DNA from: a virus
Strand: one strand, 5' to 3'
Length of the DNA stretch: 64,000 nucleotides
Virus record (IMG/VR): IMGVR_UViG_3300024983_000001
Location: 64,001 to 128,000 of that record
Part shown: one piece after another, positions 7,100 through 18,389 of the stretch
Numbering within the stretch: position 1 is the first letter of the stretch
Layout of the letters: every line of letters starts with the position of its first letter
Translations under genes and position numbers: made by a program
Notes under the pieces: generated by a model
Told to the model about the DNA's origin: nothing
Database searches by the model: none
What the model saw: the letters and a program-made list of their open reading frames with translations, nothing else

Positions 7100-7540
7100 T
7101 TATTGAGGTTGTACCTTACGAATAACTTTACGTGTTTTGTGATACTTTTTAACCACATGACGTTTTTTCTGTTGTTTTTCGATTTTGGGTGGCGGTTTAA
7201 GACTGTTTATACGGTCCTCTTCCATTCGTTTCATATCTTCCAGTAAGTTGTTGTAGCCCACAGTTGTACATTGATTATAAAAATTTGTATATGTGTCGGC
7301 AGGATTTTTTGTTTTAAGGTAAAAAGCTTCCTGTTTAATACGTTGAAATGGAAATGTGACCGCTACAGGTTCACCTGTAAAAGAATCAATATCCGGCAAG
7401 GTTACACCCATGTCGCGTAGAGTTGCTACACTACGTGCATATGCACCTACCTTATCACATTGAGTATCGATGTGTTGTTGTGGGAACCCAGCACATCCTG
7501 TTAGTAACACTACGATTCCAATCGATAGTAATTTTAACAT
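7100..7540 (-). CDS. lipoprotein with basic C-terminal tail
   Basis: Signal peptide with LTGC lipobox. Confidence 0.75.
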   Translation of the reverse strand: MLKLLSIGIVVLLTGCAGFPQQHIDTQCDKVGAYARSVATLRDMGVTLPDIDSFTGEPVAVTFPFQRIKQEAFYLKTKNPADTYTNFYNQCTTVGYNNLLEDMKRMEEDRINSLKPPPKIEKQQKKRHVVKKYHKTRKVIRKVQPQ

Positions 7541-7549
7541 ACAGTTCTC

Positions 7550-7891
7550 CTATTTAATTAATAATGTGTCGTTTGAGCAACACGATTTTAATTTTTCATA
7601 CACATCAGGCATGACGTTGATGCATCCATTCGTTATGGTTCTATCTCCAACATTTCCTGACATCAACCGGTCCATTCGGTGCTGCGTTGGATTTAACAAA
7701 TAAACACGATGGATTGCATACCATTCTGTGGATGTTTCTTTAAATTGTAACACATCACCACCATAACCTCGTTGTTCTGTAATAAGTTGATGAATTTGAA
7801 ATTCACCTTTTGGTGTATGTGTACCAATTAATGCTGGATAGCACGAATTAGCAAAACAAATTGTTGCTGTGATTAGATTAACTATAACCAT
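7550..7891 (-). CDS. L,D-transpeptidase (YkuD)-like protein
   Basis: TPKGEF, AIH...TNGCINV (H...GC) motif; start at ATG 7891. Confidence 0.7.
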   Translation of the reverse strand: MVIVNLITATICFANSCYPALIGTHTPKGEFQIHQLITEQRGYGGDVLQFKETSTEWYAIHRVYLLNPTQHRMDRLMSGNVGDRTITNGCINVMPDVYEKLKSCCSNDTLLIK

Positions 7892-7899
7892 AATACGAT

Positions 7900-7924
7900 A
7901 AAAAGGGGGCAACCCCCCTTTTTA
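7900..7924 (-). terminator. intrinsic terminator
   Basis: aaaaggggg-caa-cccccctttt with T run on the minus strand. Confidence 0.65.
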
Positions 7925-8317
7925 TTCTTTACCCTTCTTTACTGGAACCTCTTTATAAATCACAATTGGTACCGCCGGAACAGGCTTTTCCGTGACATGT
8001 GGTCGAATATACAAATATTCCCCCCGTCCAAGTTTTGGAGCCCAGTTGTAACTGTCACACTTCAACGTTGTTGACTCTTTCGCGCAATCAACATCGACAA
8101 CACGAGGCCAAATTGTTGCAGCAGTAGGAAATCCAGGCATGTATTGTGGAGCATGGTACATACCATCCATCACTGGTGGGGCTTGTTCTACCCCAACTTC
8201 ACCAGGAGTTCCCGAACCAAGCGGTGTGCGGACGATGCTAACATCTGTTGCTAATGCCACTTGAGAACATGCCAATGCAGCTAACAACGTCACTACCCTA
8301 ATATCTTTTGTATTCAT
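7922..8317 (-). CDS. secreted/periplasmic hypothetical protein
   Basis: Signal peptide ending ALA; AAAGGAG RBS. Confidence 0.75.
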   Translation of the reverse strand: MNTKDIRVVTLLAALACSQVALATDVSIVRTPLGSGTPGEVGVEQAPPVMDGMYHAPQYMPGFPTAATIWPRVVDVDCAKESTTLKCDSYNWAPKLGRGEYLYIRPHVTEKPVPAVPIVIYKEVPVKKGKE

Positions 8318-8345
8318 GTGCTTCTCCTTTTAGAAATAAGTCAAA

Positions 8346-9092
8346 TCACTTATCGTCTTTGGTTGGGCACTTAAAACCAGTTTCTTCAAGAGCTTCTTTG
8401 TTGAGATCATCCATACACATACGGGCCATAGCCGCAGCCTTGAATCCCATATTCCACATTTCACGGGAGTTCTTCAACATTACACAGTTTTTGTCAGACC
8501 ACGTAGAGCCGAGATTGATTCCGAATCCAGGAACTGAAATACCGCCACTAGACGAACCCATACAGGTATCATTGGAACTAGTTAATGCAGAGGCACTAAC
8601 ATCAGGTGTATTACGAATCGTTACTTTGCTGGGACTCGTAAAAGTGACATTTTGTGAGGCATTGTTGGAATTAGCGTTTGCGCCGGCGCCTACGGAACCG
8701 CCACTAACGTCACCAACTGTTGCATTGACGTCACCCACTTTGGCGGATGGAGAAAAGTTTCCGCCGCCATTACCAACAGAGGAATTTCCACTATCTTTAA
8801 CGGACGAATTACCACCCGCGACGTTACCTACCGATCCACCTGCTCCACCAATACCAACTCCCACCCCAACTCCAAAGCCGGTTGCGGTCGAACTTGAACT
8901 CGATGATGAACTTGAACTCGACGATGAACCATTGGAACCGCCATTACAACTATTGCCTTGACAATAGTGAGTGTTGGTATGAGTGTTGGTTTTGGTATCA
9001 CCATGTTTGCCGTTACCGAGGGGTTGGGTTGCGAAAGCCGAGCCGGAGACAAGCATAGCAGCTAATGCAACTGCAAGTAATGTTTTATTCAT
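8346..9092 (-). CDS. secreted Gly/Ser-rich protein with Cys-containing C-terminal domain
   Basis: MNKTLLAVALAAMLVSGSAFA signal peptide; AAAGGAGA RBS; poly-Ser tract. Confidence 0.8.
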   Translation of the reverse strand: MNKTLLAVALAAMLVSGSAFATQPLGNGKHGDTKTNTHTNTHYCQGNSCNGGSNGSSSSSSSSSSSSSTATGFGVGVGVGIGGAGGSVGNVAGGNSSVKDSGNSSVGNGGGNFSPSAKVGDVNATVGDVSGGSVGAGANANSNNASQNVTFTSPSKVTIRNTPDVSASALTSSNDTCMGSSSGGISVPGFGINLGSTWSDKNCVMLKNSREMWNMGFKAAAMARMCMDDLNKEALEETGFKCPTKDDK

Positions 9093-9124
9093 TTGTAAAT
9101 CTCCTTTAATTGAAATTAATGGAA

Positions 9125-9218
9125 GACTCACGGTAATTCCCGCTGCCATTGAAGTTACTCTTTAGGCCGGTGAACTTTGTGCCCCAGTCTTTCGAACTGG
9201 TATACCCTTTACATGTAT
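9125..9218 (-). ncRNA. c-di-GMP-I (GEMM) riboswitch aptamer
   Basis: Minus strand reads AAAGGGUAUACCAGUUCGAAAGACUGGGGCACAAAGUUCACCGGCCUAAAG...AUGGCAGCGGGAAUUACCG, matching the GEMM-I layout (GAAA tetraloop, CCUAA receptor, GYAGCGG, UUACC). Confidence 0.88.
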
Positions 9219-9267
9219 TCTTCTTGTTTTACTTACCCTTTCGCGGAATGCAAAAGGACAATATTAA

Positions 9268-9298
9268 TATTGTATTTCCAATATCTTAAAAAGTCAAC
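9268..9298 (-). promoter_or_regulatory. sigma70-like promoter of the riboswitch leader
   Basis: TTGACT-N17-TACAAT. Confidence 0.7.
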
Positions 9299-9854
9299 AG
9301 TCTATAATTGACCACATCTCACTGCTAATATAACTCAACAATTGCTGGAATCTGTTTTCTTTTTGTAGATTAAAAACAGGAATTTTGTAGTCGTCAGCAA
9401 TTCGTATTGCTTGTCCAGTCCCACCCGTACCAACAGTTGTTTGTGATCCTTGTTCCACACCATCTTGTGTCCAACACACAACTAGTTTAACAGGGTCATT
9501 GAGATTGGGACCCAGTACTTGATACCCATTGCGTGCCATAAGTTTTCGTGCAAATGGTGGCAATATTTTCCAAGTGGGGTGATATTTTTCAGCTAAATCA
9601 AACGCTTCATCTGTAAGGTTATATAAAGAAGAGGTACTATTGTTAAATCCTCTTGATGGCAGATATATTTCTTTATTCCCACCAAATTGGTCATATGCAA
9701 TCTCAAACGCCAGGTCGGCGCCGTCGGCGCCACCTGATCGCAACACCCAATTTCTTTTTGCTAACAAAGAAGAAATAGCAATAATCTGTTTAGTTGCGTG
9801 TGGAGGTGTAGAACGACTACCTATTCCAGCAAAACTTATAACACCGTTACTCAT
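9294..9854 (-). CDS. DprA/Smf-like (SLOG fold) protein
   Basis: FAGIGSRSTP, LRSGGADGAD.AFE, ARN..QVLG, GGTGQAIRIA. Confidence 0.8.
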   Translation of the reverse strand: MSNGVISFAGIGSRSTPPHATKQIIAISSLLAKRNWVLRSGGADGADLAFEIAYDQFGGNKEIYLPSRGFNNSTSSLYNLTDEAFDLAEKYHPTWKILPPFARKLMARNGYQVLGPNLNDPVKLVVCWTQDGVEQGSQTTVGTGGTGQAIRIADDYKIPVFNLQKENRFQQLLSYISSEMWSIIDC

Positions 9855-10053: not shown

Positions 10054-11025
10054 TTAATCTTCGATATAAACGTGATCGATGTGGTGTAGAACAAACAACA
10101 ACATAATACTCGATACCAACATCAACAGAGGATTGAACAGCCAACACACAAACGGAATAGAAAGATAATAGCTCCTCATACCAAGACTATAATAAGCGCC
10201 ACCCCTATTAAGAACTCGTGACACATAATCACTGTCGATATACGGCGATTTACAGTTGACCAAATAACCTACGTGGTTGAACATTCGTACGGACAAAGTG
10301 AACATAAAGAAGGCGGTAAATAACGTGAACAACAACGGCCCAACCTTGAAAGCATGTAACGCTGAATGTTGAGACGAAACTGCAATTGCATCTGATACTG
10401 TGCCAAAGTGTGAAATGTTCAACACTCCAATTATCAACAAGATTGCTGTAGATGCTAAAAATGTCGCAGCCATTGTTGAATTTCGTAGTGTTTGCACTGC
10501 CAACACCTCAAAGTTATCGTGTGACATAATGGACCGAACCCACGCGGAACGGGCTTGAGTGGTAATAGTTTGGAAAGTTGAATATGATGGGTCTTTACGA
10601 GTTCGGACATAAACCACTATATGATATCCAGCTAACAAAACAATACTAATGGAAAATAAAATTAGGTTACGATAGTGTCCCCACACTACATCAATAACTG
10701 TTTTCTGATGCCGCTCAAACGTAATGACGGGTGGGGGCTGATTTTTACTTTTCATTAGAGTTTGAGCATATTCGCTGCCATTTTTAGCAGCAAGGCCAAT
10801 CCATTTATCCGCCATCACAGCGTCGGGTTTGAGACCATATTCACCACTTTGATATGCCAAACCAAGCATTAACTGTCCTTTTCGATCGCCACTATCCGCA
10901 AGATTTTGCAAAACTGCCAGGTCAGATTTGTTAATATCAGCTTGATTTCTAGGTTCGAAAATATAAGCGGCTGTAATTACAGCAATCATTACAGCAATGA
11001 ATGATAGAGTTTTAAGATGTTTCAT
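10054..11025 (-). CDS. Sel1-repeat plus DUF599 membrane protein
   Basis: GQLMLGLAY..G...AAKNG repeat; LAVQTLRN..MAATFLAST, GMRSYY motifs. Confidence 0.8.
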   Translation of the reverse strand: MKHLKTLSFIAVMIAVITAAYIFEPRNQADINKSDLAVLQNLADSGDRKGQLMLGLAYQSGEYGLKPDAVMADKWIGLAAKNGSEYAQTLMKSKNQPPPVITFERHQKTVIDVVWGHYRNLILFSISIVLLAGYHIVVYVRTRKDPSYSTFQTITTQARSAWVRSIMSHDNFEVLAVQTLRNSTMAATFLASTAILLIIGVLNISHFGTVSDAIAVSSQHSALHAFKVGPLLFTLFTAFFMFTLSVRMFNHVGYLVNCKSPYIDSDYVSRVLNRGGAYYSLGMRSYYLSIPFVCWLFNPLLMLVSSIMLLFVLHHIDHVYIED

Positions 11026-12575: not shown

Positions 12576-13949
12576 TTACATAGTGCTGTTTGCTCGCACT
12601 TCATCGAACGTATATTCCCTAACAATTTTTCCATTAACGAATACAGTTTCAAGTGCATCAACCACTCCAGGTGTTTCAATGTCAGAAAAATACCCACCAT
12701 CTTCACTCTTATACAGAGTAACACGCCCCTTCTTCGACCGCTTGCCAACATCGGTAACAGGATCCTTATACACATCAACCCAGTTTCCATCAATGCACGC
12801 TGCAGACGTTTTCATCGCAAATTTCAAAGTGTCGCGGTTTACCTGTTGAAGCAGTGCTCCACCCATACCAAAAGCAACGTTGTCAGCACTATATCCAGCA
12901 AACTTCAATGTACGAAGAATCGATTTAATGCTACCCTCATTGATTCCATCGCCCTGAATAACACGTACTACCGGATTAAGAACTTTATATCCCTTCTCAT
13001 TCACTGTTGATCCAAATGCAGCATCAAGTGCTCGGACAACCTCACACACGACCGAAGCAGGATCACCACTATCGGGGCGAATAACAACAGTAGCACCACT
13101 ATCAAGCACTTCTTGTTTCAGTTCTTTACCCCACAGATTTGTGACGGCATTGAGAATGTCGTACGAATCACTAACAGCCGCAAACATCTTGCCTTTGCCA
13201 CCAAACTGTTTAATCATGTTGCGGTAAGCATCAACCTCGTTTTTACGACCCCACGACGTGTAGGAGCTGTGTTCACCAGCCGGAATCGAGTAACCAGGCA
13301 TACCAATTGCATTGTAATATTTCTGTGCAAAACGAATACCCGATACAGTGTCCGACCCCATAAAGTTGACCAAGTGGGCAGCGCCGCCAATACCAGCACT
13401 TTCAAAGGAACTAACGCCACGGGCGCCAAAATCATGCAGTTTGAACGACAGACCTGCAGGATCACCAGTCTCTTCTAATGCTGCACGAATCACTTGCTTG
13501 ATGCTCCAACTATTGGTAGCAACAGTCGTACCATACCATACAGCACGAAGAATTGCAGGCTCGATATACGACGTCAGCCAGAAACATTTGTCGTCAGTGT
13601 TTTCAACGGTAACAAGTACGTTTTTTGTACCGAGGACCATACCTTCAGGAACGGCACGGACAACAAGAGGTAGATAACCAGCGTATTTGTCCACAATATA
13701 CTGCCATCCGGCTCGGTTAAACGGTTCACCGTGAGCAGCGAAGAATTCATCAGCTTCTTCAATCATCTCTTGAGTGACGGGCTTTGTCAGATATTCCTTT
13801 AAGAAAATTTGAAGACCGAACATAACGGTTTTGTCATATTCGCCGCCTCGAGACTCAATGTAAGAGAACACTTTGGTGGTATTGGGTGGATATTGAAGAA
13901 AGTGTGATGCTTTGTATGAATCAGTATTAAGAATAATGTTTGTTTCCAT
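12576..13949 (-). CDS. nadV: nicotinamide phosphoribosyltransferase (NAMPT)
   Basis: TDSYKASH, LHDFGARG, PAGEHS, IRPDSGDP, IQGDG, FGMGGALLQ. Confidence 0.95.
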   Translation of the reverse strand: METNIILNTDSYKASHFLQYPPNTTKVFSYIESRGGEYDKTVMFGLQIFLKEYLTKPVTQEMIEEADEFFAAHGEPFNRAGWQYIVDKYAGYLPLVVRAVPEGMVLGTKNVLVTVENTDDKCFWLTSYIEPAILRAVWYGTTVATNSWSIKQVIRAALEETGDPAGLSFKLHDFGARGVSSFESAGIGGAAHLVNFMGSDTVSGIRFAQKYYNAIGMPGYSIPAGEHSSYTSWGRKNEVDAYRNMIKQFGGKGKMFAAVSDSYDILNAVTNLWGKELKQEVLDSGATVVIRPDSGDPASVVCEVVRALDAAFGSTVNEKGYKVLNPVVRVIQGDGINEGSIKSILRTLKFAGYSADNVAFGMGGALLQQVNRDTLKFAMKTSAACIDGNWVDVYKDPVTDVGKRSKKGRVTLYKSEDGGYFSDIETPGVVDALETVFVNGKIVREYTFDEVRANSTM

Positions 13950-13996
13950 GATAAAACTCCTTTATCAAAAATTATACAAACCGTCTATCAGTTTGT
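13949..13996 (-). promoter_or_regulatory. two-hairpin RNA leader, copy 1 (GAUAGAC loop plus RBS hairpin)
   Basis: ACAAACU-GAUAGAC-GGUUUGU; UGAUAAA-GGAGU-UUUAUCA. Confidence 0.8.
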
Positions 13997-14011
13997 TTGG
14001 TACTACAAAAA

Positions 14012-14257
14012 TTAACGAGAACGGTCCACCGGACTCGCTTGTTTAATTGTTGCTGTGATTCCACTGAACGTCGGATCGCCAGGGCCACGATCATACATAT
14101 CGTACGAACGCATTGTTGCGTTAAATTTGATGTCAATATCAGACAGGCTTACGTCGATATTATATTTGTCGCGAAGTAAATTGAAGACAGCTTCTTGGAC
14201 GAGCTTGTGTGCATCAGCCTCCGAGAAATCAAACGTCATCTTGGTATTAATATTCAT
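14012..14257 (-). CDS. hypothetical protein carrying the NAD-gene leader
   Basis: AAGGAG RBS; own promoter at 14316-14345. Confidence 0.7.
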   Translation of the reverse strand: MNINTKMTFDFSEADAHKLVQEAVFNLLRDKYNIDVSLSDIDIKFNATMRSYDMYDRGPGDPTFSGITATIKQASPVDRSR

Positions 14258-14304
14258 GTTAAGCTCCTTAACAAGTTATGAAGGTGAAGGGTCTGTCCCT
14301 TCAC
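14257..14304 (-). promoter_or_regulatory. two-hairpin RNA leader, copy 2
   Basis: GUGAAGG-GACAGAC-CCUUCAC; UGUUAA-GGAGC-UUAACA. Confidence 0.8.
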
Positions 14305-14352
14305 ATGTTATTTAATATTATAACTAATAAAATATATAAGTCAACACTTATT

Positions 14353-14511
14353 TTAAGCGTAAGTATCAATTCGACCTTTTGGTACTGGTTTCTTTTTCAC
14401 ATCAGGATCATTTTCCGTCTTAACAATTCGTTTAACTGGCTGAACCTTTGTTGTTGACGATTTGTCTAACAACTTTGTGATGGGTGAAACAAATATTTCT
14501 CTTAACAACAT
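14353..14511 (-). CDS. small basic protein (MLLREIF...)
   Basis: AAGGA RBS before ATG 14511. Confidence 0.5.
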   Translation of the reverse strand: MLLREIFVSPITKLLDKSSTTKVQPVKRIVKTENDPDVKKKPVPKGRIDTYA

Positions 14512-14555
14512 ATAATTCCTTTGTGATTGTGTATCTTTATATTTACACAAATAGA

Positions 14556-14909
14556 TCAAAGTTCACTTAACTGACGGTCAATATCAGCGATTTGTTCGAG
14601 CAAATCTCGTTTTTGCTTTTCAAGTTTGGTACGTTCCCAAACTTCATCAGGCTTCGAAATTTTAATCAGTTCAAAATCTCCGCCTGCCCCCCATTGCCAA
14701 AAACGTTCCATTTCTACGGCCATATCGATAATGTCGCCTAGACGACCTTCAAAATAGCCAAGTGATGGTTGATAGTGCGGTCCGTGAAGATCACAATTGG
14801 GATCTTCCCCCTTAACATGCCACAATCCATAGTCATCAAGATCATATTTTTGCAGCAACTGCCGATAATTCCACGAAACAATATATTTGTCTTTTGCTTT
14901 TGAGTCCAT
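14556..14909 (-). CDS. hypothetical phage protein (GEDPNCD...FWQWGAGG) carrying the NAD-gene leader
   Basis: AGGAGG RBS; promoter at 14959-14988. Confidence 0.75.
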   Translation of the reverse strand: MDSKAKDKYIVSWNYRQLLQKYDLDDYGLWHVKGEDPNCDLHGPHYQPSLGYFEGRLGDIIDMAVEMERFWQWGAGGDFELIKISKPDEVWERTKLEKQKRDLLEQIADIDRQLSEL

Positions 14910-14958
14910 AAGGAAATCCTCCTAATGATTTGAATGATTAACGTCTATCGTTAATCAT
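14909..14958 (-). promoter_or_regulatory. two-hairpin RNA leader, copy 3
   Basis: AUGAUUAAC-GAUAGAC-GUUAAUCAU; AGGA-GGAUU-UCCU. Confidence 0.78.
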
Positions 14959-14983
14959 AATAATACACTAATACTTATTTATG

Positions 14984-15508
14984 TCAACTATTTTTGAAAC
15001 TTCCTATTAACATTTGTGTTTTAACAACACCTGGGGACACTTCCCTCGTGTAGTGGAATCCGTCTGGATCCAATTCCAATATTTTTTGGCCGAGGATTCG
15101 TTCTGCTTGAGTGTTAGGTATTGGTTTGCCACCTAAATTCAACATTACCTTTTCCAAATTGCCGCTAAACTCACCCCACGATTTGTTTCCTGTGATATCA
15201 TCCGAAAGAATGGCCTTCAACGCATTTTTTCCATCTCTCGTATCGTTATGAAAAACTAATCGAACTTTATGCCCACTACTATTACGATAGATTACTCCAG
15301 CAACGATTTTACCATCAATAAACGACGCCTTCCATACTCCAGGTGTATTGATTAAATTGTCTAAATTTGCACCACTTAATCCCATTCCCGAACCATATTT
15401 GTCGTATGTATTTTGCAATAACTGCCATACATAACTGGCATAACGCTTTCGTTGGGTAGGTGTTACAAGATTTACAAAGTTCTCACACAGAATTTCGTAT
15501 ATTTTCAT
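14984..15508 (-). CDS. late protein, putative internal head protein
   Basis: Late promoter at 15541; N-terminus MKIYEILCE. Confidence 0.7.
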   Translation of the reverse strand: MKIYEILCENFVNLVTPTQRKRYASYVWQLLQNTYDKYGSGMGLSGANLDNLINTPGVWKASFIDGKIVAGVIYRNSSGHKVRLVFHNDTRDGKNALKAILSDDITGNKSWGEFSGNLEKVMLNLGGKPIPNTQAERILGQKILELDPDGFHYTREVSPGVVKTQMLIGSFKNS

Positions 15509-15543
15509 GTGGCATTTACCTAATATTGATTTAATATCAATAT

Positions 15544-15750
15544 TTATGACATCATGTCTGTCAAATCTCGTCCGTTTAAATAAGTAATCAAAAAATCGTG
15601 AAGATTGTATGTGACACCATCATACCCAAGGATAATATCAGGTGGTATGACTGATTCAACGACCACCATACCAGTGTTTAACATCCAAAATGCAGGGTCT
15701 CTAGGTGCAAGTTTGATTATATCTCCCGCATTAATAATAACTTCATACAT
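15544..15750 (-). CDS. hypothetical protein
   Basis: ORF within operon. Confidence 0.5.
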   Translation of the reverse strand: MYEVIINAGDIIKLAPRDPAFWMLNTGMVVVESVIPPDIILGYDGVTYNLHDFLITYLNGRDLTDMMS

Positions 15751-16303
15751 TTTTATAAACTAAATCATTCATGATGTGATGTACAGTGTCCACATTTTTT
15801 CCGTATACATTATCAACTTCGAAGAAAGGTACGCCTGTATCAATCAATAATGCTCTCAAATCCTTATCAATTTGAATAGCCTCATTCTCATCTTGATTTC
15901 TACCAACCGTTTCATACGGAACCCCCCGTCGAATAAGAACGTTGATGTTGTTGTATGAATTGTATGTGTCCATTACATAATCAAAAAATGATGGGGGGAA
16001 ATCCTCTGGCATATACATAAACCCCAACAACAACGAAGTGTCAGCAACAATATAATCTACTTGACCCACCAAACGTCTAAACCTGTTATTTTGTTTACTG
16101 AAAATATAATCTTGTTCCGTCAACATATGATGACGACCTTCAAAGGTATAATCTTTTGCAACTTCGGGTACATACTCAACCTTCCCTTTTTGGGCTAGCG
16201 ACATATAGTAAGCGAGACCAAGTGCAGTAGTGGATTTACCAACGCCGGGTCCACCCAACATATTGATTATAGTAACGTCTTTGTTATTCGAATATGGTAA
16301 CAT
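15743..16303 (-). CDS. P-loop kinase/ATPase (NadR-kinase-like, AAA_28)
   Basis: GGPGVGKST Walker A; VPEVAK; GRNQDE.EA. Confidence 0.75.
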   Translation of the reverse strand: MLPYSNNKDVTIINMLGGPGVGKSTTALGLAYYMSLAQKGKVEYVPEVAKDYTFEGRHHMLTEQDYIFSKQNNRFRRLVGQVDYIVADTSLLLGFMYMPEDFPPSFFDYVMDTYNSYNNINVLIRRGVPYETVGRNQDENEAIQIDKDLRALLIDTGVPFFEVDNVYGKNVDTVHHIMNDLVYKNV

Positions 16304-16314
16304 TTCATCTTCCT

Positions 16315-16524
16315 TTATAAGTTGTGCATTTGCTTGTCGTAATAATATCGCGCAAAATCACAAATCTCCGCTGCTTGTTGTTTTGTACATATGATAACAC
16401 GTGTACACGGATCGGTAATTAGTTGTTGATCCATCAACCATTTAATCATTCCGGAATTAGGATCCGCACATATACCAATATGCACAGAGTCCAAATCGTT
16501 TAGTTCGGTGGGGATGTTGTTCAT
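16315..16524 (-). CDS. hypothetical protein
   Basis: ORF within operon. Confidence 0.5.
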   Translation of the reverse strand: MNNIPTELNDLDSVHIGICADPNSGMIKWLMDQQLITDPCTRVIICTKQQAAEICDFARYYYDKQMHNL

Positions 16525-16886
16525 GGCATCATTGGCGAAGGTACTTCACCTCTCGTAACGCACGGCAAGTTGGAAACATCGGGATTTACACTTGTAAACA
16601 CTTCTTCCCCGTCTTTGGCTGCAAACAATGCGGTATTGTTATCAAGACTGTATATGGTCCAGCCACCTGAAACCATTTGCCAACCAGTCAGTTTATCTTC
16701 GGGTCCAACATCAGGAAATTTAACCAACAAAACATATTTGTCTCCAGATGATGGATTGTGAATACCCCAGCATGCTTTTTCAGAGCGTGCGTAATAATCT
16801 AGTGCTGCTTTTGCATACACCAATCCCGTACTAAAAGAATCATCCTTTGATGCGCCCTGTGACGACGTATCTTCCTTTTTGCGCAA
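16521..16886 (-). CDS. hypothetical protein (start uncertain)
   Basis: ORF within operon. Confidence 0.5.
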   Translation of the reverse strand: MRKKEDTSSQGASKDDSFSTGLVYAKAALDYYARSEKACWGIHNPSSGDKYVLLVKFPDVGPEDKLTGWQMVSGGWTIYSLDNNTALFAAKDGEEVFTSVNPDVSNLPCVTRGEVPSPMMP

Positions 16887-16950
16887 CCCAACAACATTAA
16901 CGTCATTAGTGCAGAAACTATCATATGTTTTTTCACAACAAACTCCTCAA

Positions 16951-17361
16951 TTAGTGATTAATAACATAACAGCGCGACAACAAAGCCATGATAACTTTGT
17001 TGTTATAATCTCCACAACGACCATTAACTAATTCGGTTGGGGTAACCCATTGAACGTTAATATCTCGTTCCATTTGAGAGGCTGCTTCCGATTCGACGGT
17101 ATGAACGTATCTAAATGTTGTTACGTGATAGCCTCCATCATCAACACCTTCATACAACTGAATCAATTGTCCACGTTGTGTAACCAATCCAGTTTCTTCC
17201 TGTAATTCTCGTATTGCTGCATCAATAGGTTTTTCGTTGTCTTCAAGTTTTCCACCGGGAAGACCAAAAACATTGTATTCACCCCTAACAGATGCGGCAA
17301 GAATCTTACCTTCTCTGTTAAAGACTACTACACATGCAGCATTACGAGTTTCACCATTCAT
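16951..17361 (-). CDS. Nudix hydrolase
   Basis: GGKLEDNEKPIDAAIRELQEETGL Nudix box. Confidence 0.9.
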   Translation of the reverse strand: MNGETRNAACVVVFNREGKILAASVRGEYNVFGLPGGKLEDNEKPIDAAIRELQEETGLVTQRGQLIQLYEGVDDGGYHVTTFRYVHTVESEAASQMERDINVQWVTPTELVNGRCGDYNNKVIMALLSRCYVINH

Positions 17362-18389
17362 TAAATTTGCCCAAGAAAATATTGAATTATGTGATAATGA
17401 TCCTCAAAACATTTCGATTCGTCAAGCTCATTTAATGGAATCCACTTTGCTTTTTCAGCATCATCATTACCTTTAACTTTTGGAAGGTCACCGGCCGGTA
17501 GCTCAATGAGGTACGCATGTGTGATTGTGCGCCCACGAAGAGACCTGTTGGGTGTATCAAACACATGAGATGTTTTGACACTACCACGGAGAACTGCCTC
17601 CGGTACTTTAATTTTAGTTTCCTCGCGAAGTTCACGAATTGCCGCGTCAAGCAGCCGTTCGTTTTGATTAACAAATCCACCCGGCAATGCACCAAGTCCA
17701 CGACCTGGGGCGGCTCGACGTTTAATCATCAGTACATGTCCGGACTGAACAACAACAGCATCAACAGTAACAAAAGTTGGAGCATACGGTGCCCTATCCC
17801 ATGAGTTTTTGTAGGCTTGAATATAAAAATATTCTTCCACGAGTACATAAAATCCTGGCGTTTTCATCCAATCAACGATATAGCTCTCGACAGCTTTTGA
17901 AACGGTTGGGTACACATGTTGTTTAACAGCAAACATTTCTTCGCGAATTTGTGTGGCATTTATACCTTGAAAATTAGGTACTTCAACAACACTCCATTGT
18001 GGAAACAGCTTTAGATAAAAGCTACTTTCGTCTTTACTGTGACCAATAATACCTATTTTGTGAGGGTTGGGTACGGCTATATAATCATCTTCTGCAATAA
18101 CACTATCAATAGTGTTTTGAATATCACGAACCCACTTTTGGTCATTGTATGGTTTATCTTTAGCCGCGACAACAACATAATTGGTATGTGAGGACCCCAT
18201 CGCAGCAAGAATCATTTGCTTGCGCTCGACAAAATTCCATGGGTTTTTAATGGTTCGTGGTTGGTTAGTAGAACCAACCACGACAATGACTTTTTCGGCC
18301 ATTTCACACGCCTGTTTGAGCACTGCTTCGTGACCATTGTGAAACGGTGAAAAACGACCGATATAAATTAGATAATTAAACTTTTTCAT
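17361..18389 (-). CDS. nadM: bifunctional NMN adenylyltransferase/ADP-ribose pyrophosphatase (NadM-Nudix)
   Basis: GRFSPFHNGH (HxGH), KNPW, NATQIRE; C-terminal Nudix box and FEDHYHII. Confidence 0.95.
   Translation of the reverse strand: MKKFNYLIYIGRFSPFHNGHEAVLKQACEMAEKVIVVVGSTNQPRTIKNPWNFVERKQMILAAMGSSHTNYVVVAAKDKPYNDQKWVRDIQNTIDSVIAEDDYIAVPNPHKIGIIGHSKDESSFYLKLFPQWSVVEVPNFQGINATQIREEMFAVKQHVYPTVSKAVESYIVDWMKTPGFYVLVEEYFYIQAYKNSWDRAPYAPTFVTVDAVVVQSGHVLMIKRRAAPGRGLGALPGGFVNQNERLLDAAIRELREETKIKVPEAVLRGSVKTSHVFDTPNRSLRGRTITHAYLIELPAGDLPKVKGNDDAEKAKWIPLNELDESKCFEDHYHIIQYFLGQI

Follow-up and report, generated by a model that had tools for sequence, protein, structure and literature searches.

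The window analysed here, a stretch of 64,000 nucleotides (nt) that makes up bases 64001-128000 of the 257,054-bp IMG/VR viral record IMGVR_UViG_3300024983_000001, carries an aptamer of the cyclic di-GMP class I (c-di-GMP-I, or GEMM-I) family in the 5' leader of two adjacent genes, gpA and gpB, whose products have predicted signal peptides. The element adds a member to a known riboswitch class, and its setting is unusual, namely a jumbo phage with an uncharacterised envelope cassette and a phage-encoded diguanylate cyclase. Judging from sequence and predicted folds, we consider it fairly probable that the element is a functional c-di-GMP-I riboswitch which exerts translational ON control over a gpA-gpB operon in this phage. 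The features of the leader and operon are as follows.

9269..9297, minus strand: sigma70-like promoter, TTGACT (9297..9292), 17 nt, TACAAT (9274..9269); consensus scan, 10 of 12 matches
9238..9259, minus strand: 5'-terminal leader hairpin (CCUUUUGC-AUUCC-GCGAAAGG), seen in minimum-free-energy (MFE) folds
9212..9223, minus strand: candidate 5' strand of a long P1 helix, GAAGA (9223..9219) plus CAUG (9215..9212), from constrained folds
9129..9216, minus strand: c-di-GMP-I aptamer, from Rfam RF01051 and custom model R1
9095..9131, minus strand: expression platform hairpin, 5' arm GUGAGUCUUCC (9131..9121) pairing with the Shine-Dalgarno (SD) region GGAGAUUUAC, from folds
8346..9092, minus strand: gpA, 248 amino acids, from the list of open reading frames
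7922..8317, minus strand: gpB, 131 amino acids, from the list of open reading frames
7900..7918, minus strand: intrinsic terminator GGGGG-GTTG-CCCCC-TTTTT, bidirectional, 3 nt past the gpB stop codon, read from the sequence

The aptamer and its key nucleotides

Using Rfam we scanned the whole window with all 4227 families and obtained two matches over threshold, a tRNA-Met and the c-di-GMP-I aptamer (RF01051). The latter runs from 9216 to 9129 on the minus strand, covers the full model (positions 1-87 of 87) and scores 57.5 bits against a gathering threshold of 35, with an E-value of 1.3e-8 (64-kb window, 4227 families). Likewise, an Rfam scan of the 257-kb record found this one copy with the same score. 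A custom model, R1, built from an alignment of 16 aptamers (A6: the window, phage relatives and twelve bacterial sequences, with the aptamer of viral contig L060, found later, left out), gave the window aptamer 68 bits. In the cmscan alignment the element is formed of a P2 hairpin with a GAAA tetraloop (CCAGUUCGAAAGACUGG), a P3 hairpin with a receptor-like CCUAAA...AUGG, and a ACGCAAAG-type junction.

The numbering of the Vibrio cholerae riboswitch Vc2 was mapped onto the alignment columns by ourselves, and places G20 at 9206, U22 at 9204, C44 at 9181, A45 at 9180, A47 at 9178 and C92 at 9133. In the literature G20, A47 and C92 contact the ligand (PMC4744006, PMC5888326), and C44 forms an interhelical pair with G83 (PMC4744006). 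The equivalents of all three contact nucleotides, together with the interhelical C (9181), are invariant columns across the 16 aptamers of A6 and are all kept in the window. A single helix pair is off consensus, U (9204)-A (9180), where the other 15 sequences have C-G, as in the C22-G45 pair of Vc2; the L060 aptamer carries the same U22-A45 variant. The original prediction, made from the DNA letters, had placed a GEMM-I aptamer at 9125-9218, had pointed out the compensatory U-A pair in place of C22-G45 and had read the G20 equivalent as G, and each of these agrees with our results, as does the Rfam check it proposed, in which RF01051 scored above its gathering threshold and c-di-GMP-I itself was the best model within its clan. 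At the level of sequence, the element is a member of the c-di-GMP-I family by every criterion.

Since position 20 is a G, the ligand expected from sequence is c-di-GMP rather than cyclic GMP-AMP (cGAMP). In the 3'3'-cGAMP-selective variant, GEMM-Ib, an A replaces G at this position, and this variant was ruled out on sequence, as 9206 is a G, like its counterpart in all 16 aligned aptamers. That the aptamer senses another cyclic dinucleotide altogether, be it 3'3'-cGAMP or a signal of a defence system, strikes us as very improbable. GEMM-I variants of altered specificity do exist (A20 in GEMM-Ib, and the GGC and UAU variants of Rfam), and phages do encounter signals of the cyclic-oligonucleotide-based antiphage signalling (CBASS) type, but G, A and C at the equivalents of G20, A47 and C92 are the signature of c-di-GMP, and within the Rfam clan it is the c-di-GMP-I model that fits best.

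Expression platform and direction of switching

The aptamer stands in sense orientation within the 5' leader, where a promoter-like site is followed by the aptamer, an SD-sequestering hairpin and then the ATG at 9092. The putative promoter extends into the end of the DprA-like gene that lies upstream (9854..9294), and the leaders of two related viral contigs, L055 and L053, have promoter-like sequences at the same relative position (TTGACA/TTGCCA-17-TATACT; alignment A2). With a start near 9262 the leader would extend for about 170 nt to the ATG (9092..9090), so that both the promoter (9268-9298) and the leader length (about 170 nt) of the original prediction were reproduced. Transcription of the bicistronic gpA-gpB operon would probably be carried out by the host sigma70 RNA polymerase. 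The 5'-terminal leader hairpin may stabilise the mRNA, and an unrelated hairpin occupies the same place in L055 and L053.

The SD of gpA, GGAG (9104..9101), is buried in the platform hairpin, which has a local fold of -12.0 kcal/mol and forms part of the whole-leader MFE structure (z -3.15). SD-sequestering hairpins of differing sequence were also found in L055, L053 and two further viral contigs, L056 and L060, making five leaders with that of the window, and no terminator follows the aptamer in any of the five. Control by transcription termination was rejected because the platform hairpin has no trailing U-tract, and control is therefore expected at translation initiation; on these sequence features, control of gpA is probably translational.

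In the mechanism that we propose, c-di-GMP would be bound through the standard G20, A47 and C92 pocket. In the unliganded leader, the hairpin 3' of the aptamer would pair the gpA SD with an anti-SD arm, which would double as the 3' strand of a long P1 helix enclosing the aptamer; the ligand would stabilise P1, the anti-SD arm would leave the SD, and gpA would be translated, with gpB along with it. This ON logic is that of the add adenine riboswitch of Vibrio vulnificus, a translational ON switch in which the anti-SD is at the same time the 3' strand of P1 and stabilisation of P1 by the ligand frees the SD, although that aptamer belongs to another class and the evidence for the same logic in the phage leader is statistically weak. 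The candidate 5' strand of P1 can pair with a 3' strand, CGUG...UCUUC, that is also the anti-SD arm. Furthermore, in four leaders (window, L055, L053 and L056) forcing the SD to be unpaired gave a best fold in which the 5' segment pairs with the anti-SD arm in a long P1 that encloses the aptamer. Opening the SD costs 2.7-7.9 kcal/mol relative to the closed state in constrained folds of these four leaders, a cost that the binding energy of c-di-GMP, which is bound very tightly, could pay. Duplexes between upstream segments and anti-SD arms averaged -7.8 kcal/mol for cognate combinations compared with -5.1 kcal/mol for non-cognate ones.

Weighing against an ON switch, the complementarity between upstream segment and anti-SD arm is not significant relative to composition-preserving shuffles (fractions 0.44, 0.08, 0.16 and 0.08), the best fold of L060 holds the P1 helix and the SD hairpin together, and the 3' strand of P2 (AAGACU) can pair with the anti-SD arm (AGUCUU), which would be an OFF design and which co-varies with L055 (AAGAUU/AAUCUU). 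As the shuffle and swap controls were marginal, we keep the ON direction as a weak preference: from the sequences we lean towards ON, give OFF roughly half that weight or slightly less, and leave the small remainder to other modes.

In the OFF alternative, which we regard as unlikely without being far-fetched, the 3' strand and loop of P2 would pair with the anti-SD arm in the absence of ligand and leave the SD free, c-di-GMP would lock the aptamer, and the released anti-SD arm would close the SD hairpin, so that production of the secreted proteins would be confined to cells with little c-di-GMP (motile or planktonic). In all leaders the MFE state is indeed the SD hairpin alongside folded P2 and P3, the 6-nt complementarity between P2 and the anti-SD arm changes jointly between the window (GACU/AGUC) and L055 (GAUU/AAUC; alignments A2 and A4), and P1 and the SD hairpin are compatible in L060; c-di-GMP-I switches of both kinds are also known, Cd1 being OFF and Vc1 ON (PMC4744006). 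However, the constrained folds never selected the pairing of P2 with the anti-SD arm and selected the P1 extension instead, L056 and L060 show no comparable complementarity, and the joint change between the window and L055 may merely mirror co-variation within the stem of P2 itself. In addition, among riboswitches for c-di-GMP that have secreted, adhesin-like targets, ON switches are the commoner kind, which again speaks against OFF.

gpA, gpB and the conserved cassette

Both proteins begin with a Sec-type signal peptide that ends in AxA, predicted by eye (MNKTLLAVALAAMLVSGSAFA/TQ in gpA and ...SQVALA/TD in gpB). After the signal peptide, gpA has a Cys pair (HYCQGNSC), a low-complexity half rich in Gly and Ser, and a conserved C-terminal domain with four Cys (residues ~150-244). 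Residues 138-244 match phrog_20531 (E 1e-15). gpA has 606 homologues (alignments A3 and A5) and no match in Pfam, NCBIfam or profiles of the Protein Data Bank (PDB), while tblastn against isolated phages gave matches to the C-terminal domain only, in Pelagibacter and Ralstonia phages. For gpB, 177 homologues share the motifs LGSGTPG, HAPQYMPGxPTAA and WPRVVDVxC...C.GYNW.P.LGRGEY (alignment A1); tblastn against isolated phages and a profile search of PDB sequences returned nothing. Neither protein belongs to a named family in Pfam, NCBIfam or PHROGs, the ESM Atlas gave unnamed viral clusters only, and the UniRef name 'DUF4189' carried by one homologue was not reproduced by Pfam. The structure prediction suggested earlier was carried out with AlphaFold2: gpB gave a β-rich model with a predicted local distance difference test (pLDDT) score of 72.5 and no fold match in the PDB (best Foldseek E 0.67; best VIA-align Z 2.7), whereas the model of the gpA C-terminal domain was poor (pLDDT 53).

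Beyond gpB lies the strong, GC-rich terminator, whose palindrome was also scored on the plus strand in a terminator scan. That two exported proteins, the first Gly/Ser-rich, should be followed by a terminator had been part of the original prediction and is what we observe. On the far side of the terminator are two further genes.

7550..7891, minus strand: YkuD-like (L,D-transpeptidase-like) protein, 113 amino acids, phrog_38499 (E 1e-41)
7100..7540, minus strand: lipoprotein, 146 amino acids, lipobox LLTGC, from the list of open reading frames

The YkuD-like protein is a weak match to Pfam YkuD (PF03734; 16.8 bits against a cut-off of 23.4, E 0.011), has an invariant AIHR...GCIN (alignment A7), and its top three PDB profile matches are to Bacillus subtilis YkuD, weak at E 0.12. 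The lipoprotein has no family match in Pfam, NCBIfam or PHROGs; its motif C.KV..YAR is common to the gene after the YkuD-like gene in L053 and L055. In these two contigs the YkuD-like gene abuts gpB with no intervening terminator, unlike in the window.

We fetched 40 bacterial loci, mostly from Comamonadaceae (Polaromonas, Variovorax and Comamonas), and 27 from IMG/VR, the latter found by alignment-based scans, as single-protein scans returned none. In every fetched locus that shows both genes, gpA and gpB are adjacent and in the same order, with gpB always directly after the gpA-type gene. They are not an isolated pair and belong to a four- to five-gene cassette, widely spread among jumbo phages and Comamonadaceae and usually without a riboswitch. 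The usual five genes encode a ~250-residue secreted protein composed almost entirely of Ala, Gly, Ser and Thr, the gpA-type protein, gpB, a ~120-residue YkuD-like protein, which follows gpB in most phage loci, and, in many cases, a lipoprotein. The first two genes appear fused in the window into one that encodes a shorter protein, and similar fusions are present in L047, L051, L059 and L062. The viral contigs that bear the cassette resemble fragments of 350-390 kb genomes, and two are near-complete at 385 and 350 kb.

The cassette is sporadic in bacteria, as gpB was found only in the seed genome among 151 sampled from the order containing Comamonas. A regulator with REC and LuxR-type helix-turn-helix domains is a conserved neighbour in 26 of the 40 bacterial loci (including L013:649-1443, L019:676-1506 and L038:606-1400) and is found in no viral cassette locus. 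This arrangement recalls curli-type loci with their divergent CsgD/VpsT-type regulator, as does the secreted, low-complexity nature of the first cassette protein; the resemblance is organisational only, and curli-type loci differ in that no curlin family occurs among the cassette Pfam matches up to E 1 and no CsgG or CsgF was seen. In four Variovorax loci (L032, L033, L035 and L036) tandem pairs of C4 antisense RNAs (RF01695; P1/P7-phage type) lie ~600-1000 nt downstream of gpB, a hint that these chromosomal copies of the cassette adjoin prophage-like DNA. A bacterial locus from a metagenome-assembled genome also contains an ordinary S-adenosylhomocysteine riboswitch (L005:6155-6236, plus strand), unconnected with the cassette.

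We found the aptamer in five of 28 phage cassettes, and in none of 40 bacterial or 80 metagenomic loci, many of the latter being short contigs. With Rfam it was detected at the same place in L055 (64.2 bits), L053 (58.2) and L056 (34.9), and a divergent copy before the cassette of L060 (L060:1519-1604, plus strand) scored 35.1 bits with the custom model and was missed by Rfam even at E <=5. The remaining viral cassette loci gave no aptamer even at permissive thresholds, and upstream of the aptamer-less cassettes Rfam detected no other regulatory RNA, whether with its gathering thresholds or with E-values as high as 5. A tree of gpA plus gpB groups the window with L053 and L055 (support 85/70) and places L056 elsewhere, which calls for at least two gains or losses of the aptamer. 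For further aptamer relatives, a specific DNA pattern matched only L053 and L055 in IMG/VR and gave nothing in the metagenomes of the Joint Genome Institute (JGI).

That most homologous cassettes have no aptamer counts against the reading proposed here to the extent that c-di-GMP control cannot be intrinsic to the module. The same absence, together with scores for L056 and L060 near or under the Rfam threshold, could suggest that the aptamer came in with flanking DNA, is a neutral or decaying passenger and has ceased to regulate anything. We give this very little credence, as the binding-site nucleotides are all intact, one stem pair is altered on both sides, and the position, orientation and SD-sequestering platform are kept in five leaders of divergent sequence.

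Beyond the cassette, a strict GEMM-I pattern scan picked out GEMM-I-like cores on 34 IMG/VR contigs, with other genes around them, so that in the raw data phage-borne copies are rare but not unique. In L168, L169, L178, L188, L195 and L197 such a core lies ~130 nt upstream of a gene for a 221-residue protein (MAAGLSPMAVLS...), and in L175, L183 and L187, which are 145-150 kb phages, it precedes a gene for a 289-residue membrane or secreted protein. c-di-GMP-I riboswitches are also present in 68 of 151 genomes of the likely host order, that containing Comamonas, which makes both a donor and a ligand-using host plausible.

Source of the ligand, phage lifestyle and precedent

Outside the window, the same viral record encodes a candidate c-di-GMP-producing enzyme.

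Record 211,395-212,318 (L166:1096-2019): PAS-GGDEF protein, 307 amino acids, from Pfam

It scores 143.1 bits for GGDEF (PF00990; cut-off 23.8) and 60 bits for PAS_9, has an intact RLGGDEF at residue 216 and, five residues before it, RDQD (RxxD), and aligns over its full length with a solved PAS/LOV-GGDEF sensor cyclase (8c05, E 5e-31). Orthologues of the same length have 50-69% identity, one of them on a 343-kb contig, and a single-protein scan of IMG/VR found no relatives. The gene has a G+C content of 41.8%, compared with 41.2% for the window, and has phage genes on both sides, with a dCTP-deaminase-like gene and an exonuclease gene directly downstream; as the record is also not classed as a provirus, host contamination was rejected as its origin.

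Because the phage encodes this PAS-GGDEF protein, the ligand may be of phage origin instead of reflecting the state of the host, and the c-di-GMP sensed by the leader would come either from the host pool or from the phage's own cyclase in a phage-internal circuit. In a self-contained circuit of the latter kind, which we put forward tentatively and think less likely than not to be correct, the cyclase, perhaps answering a signal sensed by its PAS domain, would raise c-di-GMP, and the phage's own riboswitch would time translation of a secreted envelope-remodelling module. Two findings tell against it. The Lys of the DxDxFKxxND motif is a Gly in this protein, so activity is predicted only; at this position the whole phage clade has Gly or Ser and bacterial relatives have Lys or Arg (alignment A8 and PDB alignments), while the Asp, Asn, GH and GD of the site are retained. 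Furthermore, G008, a cassette-bearing jumbo phage of 350 kb with no aptamer, also has a GGDEF protein, which indicates that cyclase and riboswitch are not strictly coupled. The GGDEF protein of G008 (L167:1474-2607, minus strand) is membrane-anchored and its motifs are fully canonical.

The original prediction was that the phage reads the sessile or biofilm state of its host, and that the riboswitch senses the host pool only is a possibility that we rate as less likely than not. The PAS-GGDEF protein would then be unrelated, either manipulating, for example, host motility or receptors, or being catalytically altered. This would fit the replaced Lys across the phage clade, the ~138 kb that separate the cyclase gene from the riboswitch, the lack of an aptamer in G008, and the frequency of c-di-GMP-I riboswitches in the likely host order (68 of 151 genomes), which shows that hosts use the signal. 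However, any c-di-GMP synthesised during infection would come into contact with so tight a receptor, and with no EAL, HD_5 or PilZ domain found in the 257-kb record, the aptamer is the sole receptor among the types searched. The reading of host state hence stands as one possibility, with a phage-made ligand as another and the direction of the switch unsettled. Among the 31 other IMG/VR records that match the strict GEMM-I pattern, only two have GGDEF, and both are classed as proviruses.

Whatever the ligand source, the output of an ON switch would be a Sec-exported envelope module, part of a cassette with low-complexity secreted, YkuD-like and lipoprotein members. The earlier suggestion that surface or matrix proteins are altered agrees with the signal peptides, the low-complexity partner and the weakly matching YkuD-like neighbour, but with no recognisable family or fold it is a guess. 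Possible roles for the module include YkuD-like-mediated anchoring of proteins to peptidoglycan, superinfection exclusion, cell aggregation and lysis timing.

The phage was also originally described as lytic. We found no tyrosine integrase or serine recombinase in the 257-kb record, which is consistent with this, although the record is only ~78% complete by CheckV estimate and a lytic lifestyle is unproven. Exact copies of the gpB protein occur on nine contigs, the longest of 346,032 bp, and the figures for the exact cyclase protein are identical, so the complete genome is probably ~346 kb. A megablast of the gpA-gpB locus against isolated phages gave no match, and the tail-fibre-like protein is uninformative as a clue to the host, matching phages of many aquatic hosts.

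Compared with Vc2 and Vc1 of V. cholerae (RF01051), the phage element has the same two-hairpin aptamer with a GAAA tetraloop, G20, A47 and C92 contacts and interhelical C-G, likewise in a 5' leader. It differs in having U22-A45 for C22-G45, in its phage rather than bacterial origin, in its unrelated downstream genes and in its platform, a compact hairpin that sequesters the SD and lies 0-3 nt past the aptamer. Of the two V. cholerae elements, Vc1 acts as an ON switch for the secreted, surface-related protein GbpA (PMC4744006).

The sole published phage precedent that we found, from Sudarsan et al. 2008 as cited in PMC5473149, is the occurrence of c-di-GMP-I riboswitches in two Clostridioides difficile prophages; the original prediction had likewise stated that the class was already reported in a temperate C. 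difficile phage, and on this account the precedent extends to C. difficile prophages only. Those phages share the riboswitch class and are temperate, ~50 kb in size and have a Gram-positive host, whereas the window phage is at least 257 kb, has no integrase found, has Comamonadaceae cassette relatives and encodes its own GGDEF protein. Our literature search found no paper on a c-di-GMP riboswitch in a jumbo phage, or on a phage that combines such a riboswitch with a cyclase. Glutamine riboswitches are present in lytic marine phages, namely Melnitz, Mosig and cyanophages (PMC9004378, PMC5473149). There too the phages are virulent and phage genes rather than host metabolism are controlled, but the riboswitch class differs and the ligand is a metabolite, not a second messenger. 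We know of no ligand-making enzyme described for these phages.

Riboswitches are considered rare in phages, and here an aptamer of textbook quality stands before a conserved exported cassette in a jumbo phage with no lysogeny genes found and in a Gram-negative setting. Were cyclase and riboswitch linked, the virus would have seized the writing as well as the reading of the main signal by which bacteria go from motile to sessile, and a self-contained circuit would mean that one virus has, for a bacterial second messenger, a writer of its own and also a reader made of RNA. A ligand-controlled switch would also provide an experimental handle on a cassette that Comamonadaceae share with dozens of jumbo-phage contigs, showing when the phage wants these proteins made, and the short modular leader could serve as a compact translational sensor of c-di-GMP.

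The genes around the operon are phage-like and encode tail-fibre-like proteins, the DprA-like protein, a nicotinamide phosphoribosyltransferase, a helicase and virion structural proteins. At 10054-11025 on the minus strand, two genes ahead of the riboswitch operon, the phage encodes a DUF599 membrane protein that scores 176 bits in Pfam and has an additional region at its N-terminus. Further upstream, 12576-18389 on the minus strand holds a nicotinamide adenine dinucleotide (NAD) salvage module formed of the nicotinamide phosphoribosyltransferase (phrog_448) and an NMNAT-Nudix-like cytidyltransferase (phrog_395).

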